Notes: generated from the sequence alone by a model not told the origin. 64,000 bases of DNA from Escherichia coli (GCF_041248615.1 NZ_CP158426.1), one strand, 5' to 3'. Counted from the stretch's first letter, positions 8,287 to 25,099 are shown. Numbers and translations: made by a program.

Positions 8287-8939
8287 TGAACTGAATTTAC
8301 TTTGAAAAAATGTAAAAACATTTAAATCATAGCCAGAAGCCGCGATTATTCAGTGCTTCTCATTTTATATTTTCTGCAAATTTATATGTGGTATAAAATA
8401 ACACCCTTGTCATTCAGGTATAAAATATCATCATCGTACAGTAAAGGATATATAAATATAAAATTATACTATTCAAAATATGGTGCATTCTTATTCATGA
8501 TAGGAATACTTAGAACATCATTTTTTCATTGTAGACCATGATTTCGGATTTGAAAAGTTCCTTCCCCAGTAATCTCTAGTTTTTATTCTCAATTCAACCC
8601 AACTCTTCCCTATACAAACTAAAAAACATTGTTCTATTGATAGATACTTCTCAGTAATCAGATAAAAAACTATAATATTGCTGTGCATGATGTACATATT
8701 TAAAATGTCATGAGTACATCCCTTTTATTTGAAAAACAAACTAAAAGAAATCACTTAAATAAAATGTTTTTATATCGTGGTATTTAAGAAAACTTATATC
8801 AAAAAATAAGATATTGACCTTTATTTAAAATTAGATTAGATTGCAAAGATAAGAATACGTGTGATTATTTCTTTAAACACCTGTAAAAATTTATTAGAGC
8901 ATAGTTATATTATTGAACATTGTATTGCTTAGGTAAGGT

Positions 8940-15937: not shown

Positions 15938-17090
15938 AATAGCTGCGCGGAATAGTAGATCACTTTGAGGGAGCTCAGCCTGGATTGTGCGATCTGATCA
16001 ATCGCCAAATCAAAACAAATCACCAACCGGACTGAGCAATGCCGATCATAGCACCAATTTCCCGTGACGAACGACGCCTGATGCAGAAAGCCATCCATAA
16101 AACACACGATAAAAATTATGCCCGCAGACTGACTGCCATGCTGATGCTGCACCGGGGCGACCGTGTCAGCGACGTTGCCAGAACGCTCTGCTGCGCCCGT
16201 TCCTCTGTTGGATGTTGGATTAACTGGTTCACGCAGTCGGGTGTTGAGGGACTGAAATCATTACCTGCCGGGCGAGCCCGTCTCTGGTCGTTTGAGCATA
16301 TCTGCACACTGTTACGTGAGCTGGTAAAACATTCTCCCGGCGACTTTGGCTACCAGCGTTCACGCTGGAGTACAGAACTGCTGGCAATAAAAATCAATGA
16401 GATAACCGATTGCCAGTTAAATGCCGGAACCGTTCGCCGCTGGTTGCCGTCTGCGGGGATTGTGTGGCGAAGGGCTGCGCCAACTCTGCGTATCCGTGAC
16501 CCGCATAAAGATGAAAAGATGGCAGCAATCCATAAAGCACTGGACGAATGCAGCACAGAGCATCCGGTCTTTTATGAAGATGAAGTGGATATCCATCTTA
16601 ATCCCAAAATCGGTGCGGACTGGCAACTGCGCGGACAGCAAAAACGGGTGGTCACGCCGGGACAGAATGAAAAATATGATCTGGCCGGAGCGCTGCACAG
16701 CGGGACAGGTAAAGTCAGCTATGTGGGCGGCAACAGCAAAAGTTCGGCGCTGTTCATCAGCCTGCTGAAGCGGCTTAAAGCGACATACCTTCGGGTGAAA
16801 ACCATCACACTGATCGTGGACAACTACATTATCCACAAAAGCCGGGAAACACAGCGCTGGTTGAAGGAGAACCCGAAGTTCAGGGTCATTTATCAGCCGG
16901 TTTACTTGCCATGGGTGAATCATGTTGAACGGCTATGGCAGGCACTTCACGACACAATAACGCGTAATCATCAGTGCCGCTCAATGTGGCAACTGTTGAA
17001 AAAAATTCGCCATTTTATGGAAACCATCAGCCCGTTCCCCGGAGGCAAACATGGGCTGGCAAAAGTGTAGTGGTATTAGGCGCAGCTATT
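15938..17090 (+). mobile_element. IS630, 1153 bp, flanked by TA
   Basis: Terminal IRs AATAGCTGCGC / GCGCAGCTATT; TA at 15936-15937 and 17091-17092; 343-aa transposase matches recalled IS630. Confidence 0.8.
16039..17070 (+). CDS. IS630 transposase
   Basis: Intact 343-aa ORF MPIIAPISRDERRLMQKAIHK... Confidence 0.85.
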   Translation: MPIIAPISRDERRLMQKAIHKTHDKNYARRLTAMLMLHRGDRVSDVARTLCCARSSVGCWINWFTQSGVEGLKSLPAGRARLWSFEHICTLLRELVKHSPGDFGYQRSRWSTELLAIKINEITDCQLNAGTVRRWLPSAGIVWRRAAPTLRIRDPHKDEKMAAIHKALDECSTEHPVFYEDEVDIHLNPKIGADWQLRGQQKRVVTPGQNEKYDLAGALHSGTGKVSYVGGNSKSSALFISLLKRLKATYLRVKTITLIVDNYIIHKSRETQRWLKENPKFRVIYQPVYLPWVNHVERLWQALHDTITRNHQCRSMWQLLKKIRHFMETISPFPGGKHGLAKV

Positions 17091-17149
17091 TAGATGATCT
17101 CTTTAACGATCTCGGTCGTAGTATAAACTTTTTTGATAAATAAATAGAG

Positions 17150-17565
17150 ACCTGTCCAGGCAATCTGAATGCTGTCAGCGTATTGCAAAAGCTAAAGGCA
17201 TTGGTCCTGAAATTGTCACGAGCGTTGTTGCTGTTATTATTGGCAAAGGCACTGAATTTAAGAATGATCGTCACTGTGCTGCATGGCTTGGTCTGCTTCC
17301 ATGCCTGCACTAGAGTTGCTGCAGGTAAGTTCTCATGAATATAACGAAAAAAGGCGACAAGCATCTGCAAACACTTTTTATTCATGGCGTCCGTGCTGTC
17401 GTTAGAGTTGCTACGAATAATAATGATGTATACCTAAATCAGTGGGTTAAGCAGTTAAAGGAGAGTCGCGAATTTAATAAAACTACTGTGGAGATTGCTA
17501 ACAAATACGCGAGAATAATCTGGTCGATGCTGATAAATGATACAGAATATCAGGCAGTGTGAAGT
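17150..17565 (+). pseudogene. IS110-family transposase, C-terminal remnant
   Basis: Frameshifted translation gives ...HCAAWLGLLPC...LFIHGVRAVVRVA...ANKYARIIWSMLINDTEYQAV, a typical IS110 C-terminus. Confidence 0.5.
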
Positions 17566-17699
17566 TAATCTCTTTCAGCAAAAGTTGCAGCGTACTGAGA
17601 AATGGTGACGGGTTGCACCTGCACAATCGGAACCTGATTTTTGTACTGGCCTCAGAGGTCGTCCAGTTGTAGAGGCGATTGTGTGTGGATTCCCTATTT

Positions 17700-17920
17700 G
17701 GGCACAGGTTTTCCTGATGCCGGATAGATGTAAGCAACAATCCAAAACCAGAATCAGTGCTTGCAAAACTGAGGTAGTCAATAGATGTAGTAAGTGGCTT
17801 CAGAAATACCGGCTTCCCGACAAACATCTTTAATTGTTCGTCCGGTTTCAACCGATTTAATTACAGCGATGATCTAATACTCAGTAATACGGGCTTTACG
17901 CATAGCGATTTTCTTCGTTA
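17700..17920 (-). mobile_element. Possible IS3-family OrfA N-terminal fragment
   Basis: Reverse translation MRKARITEY.IIAVIKSVETGRTIKDVCREAGISEATYY resembles an IS3 OrfA HTH region; contains a stop. Confidence 0.25.
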
Positions 17921-18149
17921 TCAGATTGATTATTCCGGATGATCTCTAAATATGAATGGAGCGATTATGCGGGATACTTACAGATGGCTCTCACTTAATG
18001 AGAGTCTTCTTTCAAACAACAAAAACAGTAAATTGGGTAGAATGGGGAACTTAACTGCATCGTTAATTAATATATGGATGCGCTGTTGTAAAATATAGAT
18101 GTATCGGGGATAATAATACTTTACTCTGTTTCCAGCGAGTATGTTTGGT

Positions 18150-18172
18150 TTGCTGGACAAAGCGCCTCATAA
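18150..18172 (-). terminator. Hairpin downstream of ORF 18227-18511
   Basis: GCGCCTC-ATAAAGTCAG-GAGGCGC, 7-bp stem, followed on the minus strand by a moderately T-rich tract. Confidence 0.35.
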
Positions 18173-18226
18173 AGTCAGAGGCGCTCAAAGTAGAAATATA
18201 TTTCAGAGGGAATGTATCATAATGTA

Positions 18227-18511
18227 CTAGTGGTTCTTTGATGGTATATCAAAAATGTTTGTGTGAACTGTATAACAGCCCTCCAGTAGTGATGCTAGCC
18301 ATTTGAAAGATTTCTGCTGTTCTGAAGACCATCTGGAATTATTTGATTCAAAATGAATGAATGCCAGTATTTGTATCATCTGTTCCTTAGGAAGCGATGA
18401 AGCCAGATATGAAAATGCAACCGTGAGAGCATTCATGTCGTCTCGAAGCATTGACATGTACTCGAGTAATTCCTGCAGAGTAATTGTTCTATTGTCCATA
18501 AAACTCCTCAT
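18227..18511 (-). CDS. Hypothetical small protein (~90 aa), divergent from iha
   Basis: ORF with downstream hairpin; no recognisable family. Confidence 0.35.
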   Translation of the reverse strand: MRSFMDNRTITLQELLEYMSMLRDDMNALTVAFSYLASSLPKEQMIQILAFIHFESNNSRWSSEQQKSFKWLASLLEGCYTVHTNIFDIPSKNH

Positions 18512-18755
18512 TATTAATTATATTCACCTGTCTGATGTACGAAATATCCGATAGTGTATGATTAACATATCCAAGGACAAGAAACTGATAAAGATTGGAT
18601 AAATACCCATAGTGCAAAAATCCGATATGGATCGTCAACGATTGCTATCCGTTACTTTCCCCTAGAGAAAAGAACGTCCTCAACTGAAATTCGGGGTATA
18701 GTAGAACCTTATGTAATATTTTGTAATTTTTTGCTTTTTTATGTAAAAACCAAAA

Positions 18756-18774
18756 GCAAATCATTCTCATTATC
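18756..18774 (+). promoter_or_regulatory. Fur-box-like sequence upstream of iha
   Basis: GCAAATCATTCTCATTATC resembles the Fur consensus GATAATGATAATCATTATC; lies ~50 bp upstream of the iha start. Confidence 0.5.
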
Positions 18775-18823
18775 TCTTGCGTTTGTTTATCTTCTCTCTG
18801 ATTAATATAATCGGAGAGAAGAT

Positions 18824-20911
18824 ATGCGAGTAACCACTCTGGCTTCAGTAGCCATCCCTTGTCTCGGGTTTTCAGTCAGCAGTATGGCTGCGGAAGATGT
18901 GATGGTAGTCACGGCGTCTGGCTATGAAAAAAAATTAACCAGTGCAGCTGCGAGTGTTTCAGTGATCAGCCAGGAGGATTTGCGATCCAGCCAGTATCAT
19001 GATCTGGGGGAGGCACTGAGATCCGTAGAGGGGGTGGATGTTGAAAGCGGTACGGGTAAAACAGGTGGGCTGGAAATCAGCATCCGCGGAATGCCTGCCA
19101 GTTATACGCTGATACTGATCGATGGTGTCCGTCAGGGCGGGAGCAGTGACGTAACCCCAAACGGTTATGCTGCCATGAATACGGGTTTTATGCCACCTCT
19201 GGCCGCCATCGAACGTATTGAGATTATCAGGGGCCCCATGTCCACTCTGTACGGCTCTGATGCCATGGGGGGCGTGGTGAATATCATCACCAAAAAGAAT
19301 GCAGACAAATGGCGCTCTTCGGTTAATGCCGGGCTGAACCTGCAGGAAAGTAACAAATGGGGGAACAGCAGCCAGTTTAATTTCTGGAGCAGCGGTCCCC
19401 TTGTGGATGATTCACTCAGCCTTCAGGTACGTGGCAGCACACAGCAGCGTCAGGGCTCATCGGTCACATCACTGAGCGACACCTCAGCTACGCGTATCCC
19501 TTATCCCACGGAATCACAGAATTATAATGCAGGTGGTCGTCTTGACTGGAAAGCGACGGACAAGGATGTACTCTGGATTGATATGGATATCGCCCGGCAG
19601 CGTTATGATAACCGAGATGGCCAGCTGGGCAGTCTGACGGGCGGTTATGATCGCACCCTGCGCTATGAGCGTAATAAAATTTCAGCAGGCTATGATCATA
19701 CATTCACCTTCGGAGCCTGGAAGTCATCCCTGAACTGGAATGAGACGGAAAATAAAGGCCGTCAGCTTGTACGTAGCGTACTGCAGCGTGATAAATGGGG
19801 GCTTGCCGGCCAGCCGAGGGAGCTTAAGGAGTCGAATCTTATCCTGAGCTCATTACTGTTTGCACCTCTGGGGGAATCACACAAGGTTACCGTCGGTGGT
19901 GAGTATCAGAACTCCTCCATGAAAGACGGGGTTGTTCTCGCCAGTACTGGTGAAACCTTCCGTCAGAAAAGCTGGTCGGCATTTGTTGAGGATGAGTGGT
20001 ATATCACGGATGCATTTGCACTGACTGCGGGTAGCCGCTATGAACGCTATGAGGTGTTCGGAGGACACTTCAGTCCCCGGGCATATATGGTCTGGGATGT
20101 GACTGATGCGTGGACGCTGAAAGGTGGGGTGACCACGGGATATAAGGCGCCCAGCATGGGGCAGTTACATAAGGGGATCAGCGGTGTGTCCGGTCAGGGG
20201 CGTACGAATCTTCTCGGTAACCCGGACCTGAAGCCGGAGGAGAGTGTCAGTTATGAAGCGGGCGTGTATTACGATAATCATGCCGGTCTGAACGCCAATA
20301 TCACGGGCTTTATGACAGAATTCTCCAACAAGATCGTATCTTATTCCATTGATGATAATACCCGCAGCTACACAAACAGCGGAAAGGCTAGGACTCAGGG
20401 CGTGGAATTTGCCGGCACACTGCCTCTGTTGTCAGAGGATGTGACTCTGTCTCTGAATTATACCTGGACGCAGAGTGAACAACGGGATGGGGATAATAAA
20501 GGTGCACCACTGAGTTACACCCCTGAGCATATGGTGAATGCGAAACTGAACTGGCAGATTACTGAAGAGGTGACATCATGGCTGGGTGCCCGTTACCGCG
20601 GGAAAACGCCACGTTTCACCCAGAATTATTCGTCACTCTCAGCTGTACAGAAGAAAGTGTATGATGAGAAAGGTGAATATCTGAAAGCCTGGACGGTACT
20701 GGATGCGGGCATGTCGTGGAAAGTGACGGATGCACTGATGCTGAATGCAGCGGTGAATAATGTGCTTAACAAGGATTACAGTGACGTAAGTCTGTATCGT
20801 GCCGGCAGTGGTACGCTTTATGCGGGTGATTACTTCCAGACGGGGGCATCGACAACGGGTTATGTGATACCTGAGAGAAATTACTGGATGTCGCTGAACT
20901 ATCAGTTCTGA
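18824..20911 (+). CDS. iha: Iha, IrgA-homologue adhesin / TonB-dependent catecholate siderophore receptor
   Basis: 695-aa outer-membrane protein with signal peptide, TonB-dependent receptor plug and barrel, C-terminal ...NYWMSLNYQF; matches recalled Iha. Confidence 0.8.
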   Translation: MRVTTLASVAIPCLGFSVSSMAAEDVMVVTASGYEKKLTSAAASVSVISQEDLRSSQYHDLGEALRSVEGVDVESGTGKTGGLEISIRGMPASYTLILIDGVRQGGSSDVTPNGYAAMNTGFMPPLAAIERIEIIRGPMSTLYGSDAMGGVVNIITKKNADKWRSSVNAGLNLQESNKWGNSSQFNFWSSGPLVDDSLSLQVRGSTQQRQGSSVTSLSDTSATRIPYPTESQNYNAGGRLDWKATDKDVLWIDMDIARQRYDNRDGQLGSLTGGYDRTLRYERNKISAGYDHTFTFGAWKSSLNWNETENKGRQLVRSVLQRDKWGLAGQPRELKESNLILSSLLFAPLGESHKVTVGGEYQNSSMKDGVVLASTGETFRQKSWSAFVEDEWYITDAFALTAGSRYERYEVFGGHFSPRAYMVWDVTDAWTLKGGVTTGYKAPSMGQLHKGISGVSGQGRTNLLGNPDLKPEESVSYEAGVYYDNHAGLNANITGFMTEFSNKIVSYSIDDNTRSYTNSGKARTQGVEFAGTLPLLSEDVTLSLNYTWTQSEQRDGDNKGAPLSYTPEHMVNAKLNWQITEEVTSWLGARYRGKTPRFTQNYSSLSAVQKKVYDEKGEYLKAWTVLDAGMSWKVTDALMLNAAVNNVLNKDYSDVSLYRAGSGTLYAGDYFQTGASTTGYVIPERNYWMSLNYQF

Positions 20912-21397
20912 TAACAACAAACCCGATATAACGCATTATAATACGTAAAGATGCTGCCTCTGTCACCTGAGGGCAGTGGCAGCAACACACGATGCAGGTG
21001 TTTGATCACCAGTGACCCGCCGTTTACTCCTTTAGTATGGCATACTTCTGTTGTCACCTGTGACCAGGCGCGCGACTCTGTAAACATCCGGATGTATGCG
21101 TTCTTCTGACAGTTAATATTACCGGCAGGTAGTTGACGATGTGTGGGCTTGTGACCGCATCCGGGTAATAAAGAAATAATCCGCCAGCGGCTTTTATTCT
21201 TATGGGCAGTAATTAAATACATCGCCATGTGGGTAAATATAAGTGACGGAATGAGAGTAACAAGTGATGCTGGAATTAAGATTTTGCTTTTTGCAGTGAT
21301 AGCCAGAGCCTTTTACAGAAATGTGGTATGAGGTGCATTTTTTACGCTCACATTATTGTTTTATTATCGGCGTCAACCAGTGATCAGGAGGTGCAAC

Positions 21398-21649
21398 ATG
21401 CGTATATGTGTTTTTGGTTACAAAACATGTCCTTCAGTACACCGGATCATGCATCATGCGACAAATCTCCGGGATGAAACAGGGGCAGATGTCCTCTTTA
21501 TTGATGCTGAGAAACATGGTATCAGTCTGAAGGTAATGTCTGAGCGTGCTGGATGTGCAGTTGAAAAATTCCCCTGTGTTTTTGTTGATGACGTCTATCT
21601 CGAACCACTGCCACCGGTGCCGGGACAACCTCATTATACTTATTGTTGA
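21398..21649 (+). CDS. Hypothetical protein at start of ICE-type gene remnant
   Basis: ORF from MRICVFGYKTCP...; ribosome-binding-like AGGAGG upstream; function unknown. Confidence 0.3.
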   Translation: MRICVFGYKTCPSVHRIMHHATNLRDETGADVLFIDAEKHGISLKVMSERAGCAVEKFPCVFVDDVYLEPLPPVPGQPHYTYC

Positions 21650-21844
21650 AAATCACCACTTGGTATGAATCAGTTCCCCGGCTTTGTGAAAGGCCGGGTA
21701 TAATCACAGACTGTCTGTTATGCTTGGCAGATACACTTCCCCGGATCCCACCGTAATTTTTTAATCCCGTTTTTAATTTATTGCTGATAAATGAGCGCTT
21801 TCTTCGCACGCTGTCAGTCAGATAATATCTGACTGAGGTGTACG

Positions 21845-22240
21845 ATGTACCGGATTTTCTGTTCCCTGTTTTTCCTGCCGCTGGCAGCGTCTGCCGGCAC
21901 AACAATTTATACCGATTCTCAGCATCTTCCCGTTAATCCTCCTGATGGTGTCAGGGTGGTTCTGCTGGATGCGCCTGAGCAGCTTCAGAGCCGCTTTTGG
22001 GGCCTGTTGCCTGCTGATGCGGGTGAGGCTGAATCGGTGGTCAGGGTACGTATGAAGTCTCCCGAATGGCAGACGATGCAGGCGGAACTGGCCGGTCATT
22101 ACCGCGATGTGGCACATGCCTAGTCGCTGGGCGTGAAGAAATACCCTGCCGTGGTGTTTGATGACAGTGAGGTGGTTTACGGCACCATGGATGTGGTGAT
22201 GGCCGGGAAAATCCGTGCTGAGGGAGGAGTGCAGCCATGA
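21845..22240 (+). pseudogene. ICE-type conjugation protein with signal peptide, interrupted by in-frame amber
   Basis: TAG at 22121-22123 within ...HYRDVAHA*SLGVKKYPAVVFDD...; stop overlaps next gene start (ATGA at 22237). Confidence 0.45.
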
Positions 22241-23211
22241 TGTCCCTGAAATGTCGTCTGCGTACCGGCGTGCTGTTACTGAGTGTGGCATCACTGCCCC
22301 TGGCGTCTGTATCACTGAACACCGCCAGCATTATCGCCAGTACTGCGGCACCGGACTATATCAGCTGGCGTGTCAGCGGGATTTGTTACTGGCTTTACTG
22401 CAGCGCGTCTGGCTGTACGGTCAGAATTTCCGTGAAGGTGACACATTTCATCCCGGAAGTGGTTATTTCCACCTATACGGCACCGGGTGGTAATCCCTGG
22501 AAAGAGATGTCGCTGGTCAGCCGGACCGCAGGTGGCCCGGAGAATGCCATCACTGACGGCCTGTCCGGGCTGAGTGCCGGCGGGGGAAATCCGGCGGATA
22601 TGAAAATACAGGGGAAGCGCCGTTCAGCAATTCGTTTCAAATATGCAGATGCGCTGGGTCATCCGGCCACACAGCTTATCGGCGGGATGGTACCCGGATT
22701 CAGCTGTGATTCACCGGTGACACCGGCCATGGCCTATTTCCTCAGTACCCTGGACAGCATCGTCTAGCGAACGGGATTACCTGAATCCCTGTATCCAGAG
22801 GCACAGGTTCCCGGCAAACGCGAGATTGGCAGCTAGGCCGATAAAAACATGTGGGGGAGCGTTTATCACCGGAGTGGTTTTGTGATGCAGAGCGATGATG
22901 ACCGGGCCGCGGCGGTGGGGGCTCAGCGGGTGGCCGACATTATCACGCGGATGGGGGAGTCGCATGTCTACAGGGAGGTTAAGGGCGTGAAACGTGACGG
23001 CTACTGGCCCCCGGAGGCGGTGGAGGAAAACACCGGCACCCGCAATCACAAATGGCAGCGACTGACGCCGTCAGTGTCGCGTTCCTGTGCCGTTTTCCCG
23101 GATGGTGAACACCAGGCGGCGGAGAACGGTAATGCAGCCTTTGCACTGTGGCAGCCTTACAGCTGCTTCGAAAAGCGCGGGCAGCGATTCCTTGGCAGTA
23201 CGAATTTTTAA
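22237..23211 (+). pseudogene. ICE-type conjugation protein (TraU-like?), broken by stop/frameshift near 22767
   Basis: Signal peptide, GICYWLYC motif; continues in ORF 22849-23211 in another frame. Confidence 0.4.
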
Positions 23212-23217
23212 GGAACC

Positions 23218-23960
23218 ATGATGATGAAGATGAAAACAGGTATGGTGGCACTGAGTGTGATGCTGTACTGCAGTATTCCGGCGATGGCTGATCTTCTTTC
23301 CCTGCCGAAACTGAATGACAGCACGTTCGGTTACGGGAAATCCGTGGATGGCGCCGTATCCGACAAACTGTTCTATACGCTGGGTGGCGGCTCGGTGATC
23401 TCACAGTTGGCCACGCGCAGCAACATGCAGAAGCTGGGTATGGACCTGGGCTGGAGCAGCGATCTGATGTGCGGCAACTTTGACCTGAAGACCACGGTGG
23501 GTAATCATCTTAACGGATTGACCGACGGCTTTAAAAATCTGATGGGGGATGTGATTTAGGGGGCGACCGGCGCCGCTGCCAGTCTGCCGGCGATGGTGAT
23601 ACAGCGTGCCAACCCCGGCCTGTACGACATGATCACCAACGGTGTGCTGCAGGCGAATGTGGCTTTCGACAAGGCGTAACTGAACTGCCAGAACATGGCA
23701 AAACGGATGATGGACTTTTCTGATCGCAGCAAATGGACGCAGGCCAGCGATGCTGGAAGAGTACAAGAAGGTGGTGAACAGCGGTGACGGTGATGCGGTG
23801 AAAGGGGACGAGGCCGGACGTCAGGCCACCGGGAAGGAAGGTAAGAAATGGATTGGCGGGCAGCAGCGCGGCGGGGCAGGTCAGCCCGCCATCCGGCCGG
23901 TGCATGATCTGACAGCGGCTGGGTTTAACATGATGAACAGTCTGCCCGTGACCAGTACGG
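23218..23960 (+). pseudogene. ICE-type conjugation protein, frameshifted and 3'-truncated
   Basis: Signal peptide MMMKMKTGMVALSVMLYCSIPAMA; frame shifts after 23559; truncated by the IS2-like remnant. Confidence 0.4.
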
Positions 23961-23979
23961 GAGGTTACGATAAAGCCGA

Positions 23980-24390
23980 CAGTGCAGGATGTGATGTTAG
24001 GAGCGATAGAAAAACGCTTTGGCGATAAAGGACCGGAACGAGCAATCCAGTGGCGGACGGATAACGGTTCGGCTTATACGGCTCATGAAACACGGCAATT
24101 CGCCAGAGAGTTGAATCTGGAGCCCTGCACGACGGCAGTCAGTAGCCCTCAGAGCAATAGAATGGCAGAAAGGTTCGTGAAAACGTGAATGAAGACTACA
24201 TCGCGTTCATGCCGAAACTGAATGTAATAACGGCATTGCATAACCTTGCAGAGGCGTTCGAGCATTACAATGAAAACCATCCGCATAGTGCGTTAGGTTA
24301 TCTCTCACCACGGGAATATCGACGTCAGCGGATAACGTTAACTTAAGATACAATAGCAGTCTGATATTGAGGGGGCAAGAACATCCGAAC
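23980..24390 (+). mobile_element. IS2-group (IS3 family) 3' remnant: orfB C-terminus plus right IR
   Basis: ...[46 protein letters not shown] and ...[24 protein letters not shown] (frameshifted), followed by an IS2-IRR-like sequence. Confidence 0.55.
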
Positions 24391-24577
24391 CACACCAGCC
24401 TGTGACTTATACCCTGTCTCTACGACCCAGAGAGTATTATTCTTAATAATCTCATAATATATACACAATAGGAAGTATCTATTAACAAAATAGAGAACAT
24501 CGTTTTTACTATCAAATAGTTGCACTGTATTAATATGATTAAACTTTAAAAAAGTTTCAGGCTGATCAGGAGGAGTT

Positions 24578-25051
24578 ATGAAAAAAATAAATATTTTAAT
24601 TCTGTGTCTGTTTTCTGGAGCGTCGTGGGCAAGTGACGTAGATAATGTTAAGTGTATTCGGGTAGATAGTAAAGACATTGAAAGGTTATTCGATCGCTGG
24701 AATGAATCATTAAAAACAGGTGATGCCAAGAAGGTTGCTGATAACTATTTAAGTGATGCGATCTTACTGCCCACAGTATCAAAAAAAATTAGGATTACAG
24801 ATGCAGAAAGAGTTGACTATTTTGAGCATTTTTTGAAAAAAAAACCTGTTGGAGAAATAAACTTCAGAACTATTCGCATTGGATGCAATATGGCTCTTGA
24901 TACAGGGAATTACACGTTTACTTTTGAAGATAAAAAACAAGTTTCAGCACGCTATAGTTTCGCTTATGAGTGGGATGGAAAGGATTGGAAAATATCATCC
25001 CATCATTCATCTGTAGTGCCAACAACAGAGCCTGTACATAGATTTGTGTAA
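24578..25051 (+). CDS. Secreted NTF2-like (SnoaL/DUF4440-type) protein; last 7 codons supplied by the IS end
   Basis: Signal peptide MKKINILILCLFSGASWA; native stop TAA now lies at 26351 after the IS insertion, so the C-terminus ...VVPTT is replaced by ...VVPTTEPVHRFV. Confidence 0.5.
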   Translation: MKKINILILCLFSGASWASDVDNVKCIRVDSKDIERLFDRWNESLKTGDAKKVADNYLSDAILLPTVSKKIRITDAERVDYFEHFLKKKPVGEINFRTIRIGCNMALDTGNYTFTFEDKKQVSARYSFAYEWDGKDWKISSHHSSVVPTTEPVHRFV

Positions 25052-25099
25052 TTGCCTGATTTTGATATGTTCAATCCAGCATCAAATGAAGGTTAATTT

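Follow-up and report, generated by a model that had tools for sequence, protein, structure and literature searches.

A probable fossil fragment of a genomic-island-type integrative conjugative element, with intact iha and decayed transfer genes, in an Escherichia coli chromosomal island

Genes and features of the fragment

The stretch of E. coli DNA analysed here (the window) is 64,000 nucleotides long, and its RefSeq annotation was read from a 100%-identical stretch of the chromosome of E. coli NRZ14408 (NZ_LT599825.1, 2435672-2499671). An ORF listing of the region of interest gives four ORFs on the same (+) strand, at 21398-21649, 21845-22123, 22237-22767 and 23218-23559. The original prediction took all four to be a conjugation module resembling that of ICEclc/PAPI-1-like integrative conjugative elements (ICEs). 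TIGRFAM and Pfam profiles were scanned against a three-frame translation in which X was put at stop codons, and the DNA was compared with intact ICEs, above all the ICE at pheV in E. coli TUM1887 (NZ_CP128963.1, about 800,068-892,600), which is the closest intact relative. The features are as follows.

18710-20984, + strand: iha cassette, from homology to iha DNA in the TUM1887 ICE
20985-21764, + strand: spacer of 780 bp outside the ICE backbone, from absence of homology
21398-21649, + strand: orphan glutaredoxin-like ORF of 83 aa within the spacer, sub-threshold GrxA match
21765-21844, + strand: intergenic DNA of the ICE backbone, upstream of the TIGR03757 gene, from blastn
21845-22240, + strand: TIGR03757 (DUF1525) pseudogene, from HMM; a RefSeq pseudogene with an internal stop
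22237-23211, + strand: TIGR03756 (TraU-like) pseudogene, from HMM; a RefSeq pseudogene with an internal stop
23221-23960, + strand: N-terminal half of a TIGR03755 gene, the first 246 or so of its 472 codons, from HMM and the TUM1887 alignment
23954-24383, + strand: remnant of about 430 bp from the 3' part of an insertion sequence of the IS3 family, IS2 group, from HMM and DNA homology

Positions 21845-23960 thus hold three consecutive conjugation genes, TIGR03757, TIGR03756 and the first half of TIGR03755, all of them pseudogenes, and in the HMM scans their similarity to ICE families is far above chance. The TIGR03757 gene scores 115.2 bits (cutoff 73.2; 1.6e-33, profile positions 3-108 of 113) and also matches Pfam DUF1525 at 2.6e-30. 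The TIGR03756 gene scores 371.6 bits (cutoff 188.35; 2.8e-111, positions 1-297 of 298) and matches Pfam TraU with 160.7 bits (7.3e-47). TIGR03755 is met in two pieces on either side of a frameshift, covering profile positions 1-137 (1e-56) and 132-204 (1.8e-22) of 419; these fragments score 192.6 and 79.8 bits, below the whole-protein cutoff of 270.45, so that the homology is clear and the protein truncated. The profile test that had been proposed for ICEclc/PAPI-1-like genes was therefore positive, with two genes above cutoff and an N-terminal half of the third. RefSeq already gives pseudogene status to the TIGR03757 and TIGR03756 genes; at 23221-23559 it has 'hypothetical protein' only, which can be re-annotated as a TIGR03755 fragment.

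The arrangement of the three genes is that of a transfer operon. The order TIGR03757, TIGR03756, TIGR03755 on one strand, with a 4-nt overlap, is common to the ICEs of TUM1887, G1/2 and CH4811 and to ICEEc8. The overlap in the window is a single ATGA (22237-22240) joining the TIGR03757 stop to the TIGR03756 start, with GGAGGAG just before it. Coupling of this type had been predicted more widely, but one such overlap is all that is found, since TIGR03756 and TIGR03755 are about 9 nt apart. Signal peptides had likewise been predicted for the ORFs; judged by eye only, the three ICE ORFs do have signal-peptide-like starts (MYRIFCSLFFLPLAASA; MMSLKCRLRTGVLLLSVASLPLASV; MKMKTGMVALSVMLYCSIPAMA), but the ORF at 21398-21649 does not.

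Does this first ORF belong to the module at all? All four ORFs exist as predicted, but only three are conjugation genes. The first lies in the 780-bp spacer, which has no counterpart in the ICE DNA of TUM1887, G1/2 or CH4811; homology to intact ICE DNA resumes at 21754-21765 (blastn). The Pfam scan gave no match for the ORF, and the GrxA HMM gave 33.4 bits where 84 is the cutoff, with TCPSV in place of CPYC. Its protein family is small and found in E. coli only, and a 69%-identical homolog sits in an unrelated, non-ICE island beside BON, DoxX and ZnuA-type genes. We considered a role as a redox or accessory gene of the ICE and rejected it on three counts: the location outside the ICE homology, the E. 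coli-only family, and the homolog in a non-ICE island. By its sequence context the ORF is unrelated cargo and not a conjugation gene. Because the spacer is missing from every intact ICE examined, the immediate ancestor of the fragment was either unlike the TUM1887 ICE or rearranged.

Lesions, right junction and pattern of decay

Base-by-base comparison with the intact TUM1887 copy gives five premature stops (four ambers and an ochre), a +1 insertion and a truncation. The amber at 22121-22123, which had been predicted to interrupt one of the ORFs, is confirmed and falls in TIGR03757, where Trp93 TGG has become TAG through a change at 22122. Frameshifts had been held responsible for the breaks in the other genes. 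This does not apply to TIGR03756, which is broken by two ambers, one at 22765-22767 (Trp177, TGG to TAG, changed base 22766) and one at 22834-22836 (Gln200, CAG to TAG), and which has also lost conserved cysteines (e.g. C41Y and C311F). It applies in part to TIGR03755, which has a +1 insertion of A at 23746 besides an amber at 23557-23559 (Gln113, CAG to TAG) and an ochre at 23677-23679 (Gln153, CAA to TAA). TIGR03755 aligns with positions 21457-22195 of the compared TUM1887 stretch, and its homology ends at about 23960, in codon 246 or so of 472.

At this break TIGR03755 adjoins the IS remnant. The IS2 TnpB profile NF006918 is matched over positions 172-241 and 241-289 of 301 (E 6e-25 and 1.6e-19), and Pfam rve and rve_3 also match. 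With scores of 88 and 71 bits, where the cutoff is 597, and with a frameshift, the TnpB matches are those of a fragment and not of a full-length IS2. RefSeq has an 'integrase core domain' pseudogene at 23954-24346, with its N-terminus missing and its frame shifted. The closest DNA matches, over about 23952-24383, are copies of an unnamed element of the IS3 family (89-90% identity), whereas true IS2 reaches only about 73%. The prediction that an IS2-like remnant cuts the last ORF thus holds for the presence of an IS remnant from about 23954, with this other IS3-family element as the nearest relative. The remnant is without the 5' 900 bp or so of the element. Since both TIGR03755 and the IS are broken internally where they meet, the junction is one of deletion or recombination rather than a simple insertion.

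When 5,426 complete E. coli genomes were searched at the DNA level with high sensitivity, versions of the region fell into three identity classes: at least 99% in 59 genomes, 90-95% in 25 records, and ICE versions at 66-80% in many others. Two of the genomes in which the fragment is at least 99% identical, LH50-c and F11, were checked base by base, and both have the same lesions save the 23557 amber. The absence of this one amber from strain LH50-c, which has all the others, implies that the lesions accumulated stepwise. The recurrence in 59 genomes, the lesions in LH50-c and F11, and the RefSeq pseudogene calls together exclude sequencing or assembly error.

Differences between the window and TUM1887 were polarised with two outgroup ICEs, G1/2 (80%) and CH4811 (74%). 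The branch to the window carries 51 changes, namely 29 missense, 5 nonsense and 17 synonymous (dN/dS about 0.63), and the branch to the intact genes 13 non-synonymous and 18 synonymous ones (dN/dS about 0.23). Synonymous divergence is almost equal on the two branches, whereas the ratios of non-synonymous to synonymous changes differ (34:17 vs 13:18, Fisher p = 0.039). The substitutions thus show relaxed constraint on the three transfer genes, which are decaying near-neutrally.

Each of the five stops arose by a G:C to A:T transition, in two cases at the methylated cytosine of a Dcm site (CCTGG to CCTAG at 22119, CCAGG to CTAGG at 22833). Deamination of 5-methylcytosine at Dcm sites is the classical mechanism of amber hotspots, so that the two ambers are a neat instance of a known phenomenon. 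The number of stops is in excess of expectation (5 observed, whereas 25 G:C to A:T changes should give 1.24; P = 0.007), and selection for inactivation could be proposed as the cause. We do not invoke it, because two of the five stops lie at Dcm hotspots and the remaining three against about 1.2 are, on a rough estimate, unremarkable; Dcm hotspots explain most of the apparent excess.

Intact relatives, the iha position and the surrounding island

Intact three-gene sets with the same order and ATGA overlap occur in other E. coli ICEs at 95%, 80% and 74% nucleotide identity. The 95% set is that of TUM1887, to which positions 21765-23960 of the window align with the same ATGA overlap. The TUM1887 ICE is 92.5 kb long, is bounded by 51-bp att repeats of tRNA-Phe (pheV), and looks complete. 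Its operon encodes PilL, TIGR03759, TraD, TIGR03747/58/45/50, PFL_4703, TIGR03749/52/51, a conjugative ATPase, TraG-N and others; the element also has ParA/ParB, an SPI-7-type DnaB (DnaB-PI), STY4528, PFL_46xx/47xx proteins, topoisomerase III, a type IVb pilus with a shufflon PilV, a UvrD helicase, a relaxase-type TraI-domain protein and an integrase. This gene set supports assignment to the ICEclc/PAPI-1/SPI-7-type family. The window differs from the intact ICE in retaining only about 5 kb of homologous DNA and in having the 780-bp spacer with its GrxA-like ORF, which the TUM1887 ICE is without.

The iha gene (CDS 18824-20911) is intact and encodes 695 aa; RefSeq, too, treats it as intact, under the name 'bifunctional siderophore receptor/adhesin Iha'. 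In the TUM1887 ICE, iha lies between the gene for the conjugative ATPase with a small hypothetical gene and the TIGR03757 gene. The same local order (conjugative ATPase, hypothetical, Iha, TIGR03757, TIGR03756, TIGR03755-type) is found, by comparison of gene tables, in ICEEc8 of the STEC O117:H7 strain FHI72 (Montero et al. 2019), a pheV-associated element with conjugation and type IV pilus genes, described as complete at 86.5 kb; in its Table S7, ORF49 is the ATPase, ORF50 hypothetical, ORF52 Iha, ORF53 TIGR03757, ORF54 TIGR03756 and ORF55 an ICE protein (PMC6455142). Because iha is inside the transfer operon, directly upstream of TIGR03757, in both elements, the iha and the dead genes of the window are one ICE-derived fragment. 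The segment 18710-20984 has 93.5% nucleotide identity to the TUM1887 iha segment (17345-19615 of the compared stretch), and iha was probably a cargo gene of the ancestral ICE.

Protein comparisons show the window Iha to be a diverged allele: it is 95.0% identical to the TUM1887 Iha and 90.4% to the O157 Iha. The Iha of ICEEc8 is of the O157 type (686/696 to WP_001223350.1), and the backbone protein accessions of ICEEc8 match the G1/2 ICE, itself about 80% identical to the window in nucleotide sequence. The classical iha allele is present in about 1,540 genome records, which share with the window the gene alone. Classical iha loci such as the O157 tellurite island were accordingly discarded as carriers of ICE traces, the homology to the window stopping about 10 bp past the iha stop. 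In the tblastn search described below, the TUM1887 iha ORF also has a weak, paralogous match, with 26% identity and an E of 1e-7, to a different receptor gene that lies upstream.

The position that iha takes in TUM1887 and ICEEc8 is empty in the G1/2 ICE and filled in the CH4811 ICE by a DUF1187 gene, a hypothetical gene and an AraC-family gene, which makes it a cargo hotspot. It may even be, although we put this forward tentatively and with slightly more doubt than conviction, that the gap between the ATPase and TIGR03757 genes is a dedicated site of cargo capture that spreads at least two diverged iha alleles on ICEs, and that the window catches in the act the conversion of an ICE to a fixed pathogenicity island, for a third and poorly studied iha allele of poultry and human ExPEC.

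What else of the ICE is left? A search by tblastn with all 857 TUM1887 ICE ORFs of at least 50 aa covered the window and 50 kb upstream, about 114 kb in all. Besides IS256-family matches and the one weak paralog, only iha and the three pseudogenes were matched. A search for relaxase, TraG and pilus genes had been proposed along with the prediction; in these 114 kb or so there is no relaxase, coupling protein, VirB4-type ATPase, TraG, pilus gene or integrase of the TUM1887 type. The pheV/att sequence of the TUM1887 ICE is absent from the window and 96 kb upstream, the tRNA scan found no tRNA gene in the 64-kb window, and in a DNA search the NRZ14408 chromosome matched the three genes at one place only. 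That the element has lost its mobility, as predicted, follows from the missing ICE genes and att sequence together with the lack of a second copy, and the prediction of an ICE origin agrees with the 95% identity to the intact TUM1887 copy. The fragment is without what marks a functional ICE, namely a complete transfer set, a cognate integrase with att repeats, and intact frames. At the level of sequence, the dead TIGR03757, TIGR03756 and TIGR03755 genes are predicted to be incapable of building a transfer apparatus.

The surrounding island is about 97 kb long, lies between ynjB and ynjA, and carries aerobactin and sit genes, many IS remnants, and a YeeU/CbtA-type module at its far end. Its tyrosine integrase (43930-45117) is not detectably similar to ICE integrases by tblastn. 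This integrase and a ProQ/FinO-PerC-SSB cluster at 35015-35901 were considered as leftovers of the same ICE and rejected, there being no tblastn similarity to TUM1887 ICE ORFs. Within 17000-26500, a repeat search found the fragment bracketed by neither an IS pair nor a target duplication nor an att-like repeat, and an Rfam scan found no family at gathering score. The ICE-derived piece, about 5 kb long, thus stands isolated in a mosaic island.

Origin of the fragment and likeness to known systems

Taken together, these data make it very probable that 18710-23960 is a fossil fragment of an ICE with a genomic-island type IV secretion system (T4SS), of the ICEclc/PAPI-1/SPI-7 family, that has kept its cargo iha intact and its transfer genes as dead copies. 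Its closest relatives are the pheV ICE of TUM1887 and ICEEc8. The ancestral ICE would have carried iha as cargo within its mating-pair-formation operon, between a VirB4-like ATPase gene with a small hypothetical gene and TIGR03757. IS-associated deletions may then have removed the rest of the element, and the dead genes may persist only through physical linkage to a selected iha.

How did the fragment come to lie in this island? One answer, to which we would give nearly even weight, is that only iha and the adjacent ICE DNA were copied into a pre-existing mosaic island, either through homologous recombination or through transposition mediated by IS elements. On the left, homology begins at 18710, exactly where the iha cassette does and not at a point inside the ICE backbone; IS630, IS3 and IS1414 elements flank the fragment; and a backbone with a P4-type integrase and YeeU/CbtA is typical of non-conjugative E. 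coli islands. However, no intact IS pair or target-site duplication surrounds the fragment, and a right junction inside both a gene and an IS points to deletion rather than transposition.

The other answer is that a complete iha-carrying ICE integrated at or into the island and was whittled down in place by IS insertions and IS-mediated deletions, which is what the original prediction says if taken literally. We consider this only slightly less likely than import of a fragment. It would account for the deletion junction with an IS remnant at the right end and for the IS fragments that crowd the island on both sides, and the stepwise point mutations are consistent with long residence. It does not sit well with the absence of ICE backbone to the left of iha, nor with the absence of att/pheV or any other ICE gene remnant from about 114 kb. 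Moreover, this ICE family targets pheV (PMC6455142), whereas the island is at ynjB-ynjA and has a different integrase. Both histories would allow for the deletion junction on the right and for the stepwise decay; the left edge at the cassette boundary and the lack of backbone, att sequence or cognate integrase lead us to lean slightly towards import of a fragment.

A last reading, that the genes still function, because the stops are suppressed or are assembly errors or because secreted N-terminal products have taken on a new role, could appeal to the signal-peptide-like starts kept by the N-terminal ORFs of 92, 176 and 112 aa and to the Shine-Dalgarno sequence before 22237, but is extremely improbable in view of six independent inactivating lesions plus a truncation, a near-neutral dN/dS with loss of the TIGR03756 cysteines, the presence of the fragment in 59 genomes at no less than 99% identity, with all lesions but one confirmed in each of the two checked, and the absence of all other T4SS partners from the 114 kb or so searched by tblastn.

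By whichever route the ICE fragment arrived, a conjugative element was the source from which this iha allele reached a virulence island of the chromosome, which fits the accepted picture of islands as mosaics with degraded mobile elements.

Among known systems, TIGR03756 recalls TraU of the F plasmid, which is located in the periplasm and is required both to assemble the pilus and to transfer DNA. The window gene matches Pfam TraU (PF06834) nearly over its full length at 7e-47; it is nevertheless a distant homolog from a different type of T4SS, and is broken by two ambers. The nearer comparison is with ICEclc, PAPI-1, pKLC102, SPI-7 and ICEHin1056, with which the window has the family-specific TIGR03755, TIGR03756 and TIGR03757 proteins in common, and whose genomic-island-type T4SS we take to be the one called MPF_G in the literature. 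What the window holds is a non-functional remnant of three genes and no element. Such a relic is ordinary and already known in kind: the ICE family is a familiar one, the placing of iha within an ICE has been published, and RefSeq had flagged pseudogenes here.

The host island and its insertion sequences

The window up to about position 45117 belongs, with some 52 kb upstream, to an island of about 97 kb in total (about 2383300-2480800 of NZ_LT599825.1, the identical sequence from strain NRZ14408), which is inserted between ynjB and ynjA and not at a tRNA. Besides iha, its cargo includes aerobactin genes (with a frameshift in iucD), sitABCD, sodC and genes resembling ibrAB; a group II intron in degraded form also lies within it. 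The features considered here are:

ynjB end of the island: YeeU/CbtA/DUF4942 module
21398-21649: orphan glutaredoxin-like ORF, 83 aa, with TCPSV where CPYC is expected
25028-26341 and 32320-33634: two identical, mutually inverted copies of IS1414 (IS256 family), 1,314 bp each
35015-35901, minus strand: ProQ/FinO-like gene, PerC-family regulator and short SSB gene
43930-45117: tyrosine integrase, at the ynjA end of the island

Separate 8-bp target duplications (CAACAACA and CAACTGTC) flank the two IS1414 copies. The island in strain XDL is near-identical except that it lacks both copies. In the SgcJ/EcaC-family ORF at 24578-25051, the 3' end has been altered by insertion of the first copy. The gene combination at 35015-35901 is typical of leading regions in plasmids or islands; similarity between this cluster and the ORFs of the TUM1887 ICE, the closest intact relative of the decayed element, was not detectable. 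Members of the glutaredoxin-like family were seen in E. coli only, and a 69% homolog of the ORF lies in a different island, between BON-domain and DoxX genes and adjoining a ZnuA-type transporter.

Nonsense mutations and Dcm sites

Two of the five nonsense mutations in the three ICE transfer pseudogenes alter the inner cytosine of a Dcm site, CCWGG (window 22119-22123 and 22833-22837), leaving CCTAG and CTAGG. Counting changes on either branch, that of the window or that of TUM1887, 3 of the 10 methylated positions in the region have changed, as against about 2% of all G/C sites.

The iha allele and the cargo site

The iha gene of the window (18824-20911) is a diverged allele, its product being 90.4% identical to the Iha protein of O157 and its DNA about 86% identical to O157 iha. 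Only 59 complete genomes, out of the 5,426 searched, carry this allele at an identity of at least 99%; chickens are the source of many of these, and human blood or urine of some. About 1,540 records have the classical allele. A near-perfect inverted repeat of 17 nt (TATCTTCTCTCTGATTA / TAATCGGAGAGAAGATA, window 18788-18824) terminates at the iha start codon.

In the TUM1887 ICE, iha is followed by a 57-bp stretch (19628-19683 of that locus) with about 81% identity to positions 8748-8804 of the related G1/2 ICE locus, where this sequence forms the 3' end of a small hypothetical gene preceding the cargo site. The stretch downstream of TUM1887 iha may be a footprint of cassette entry.
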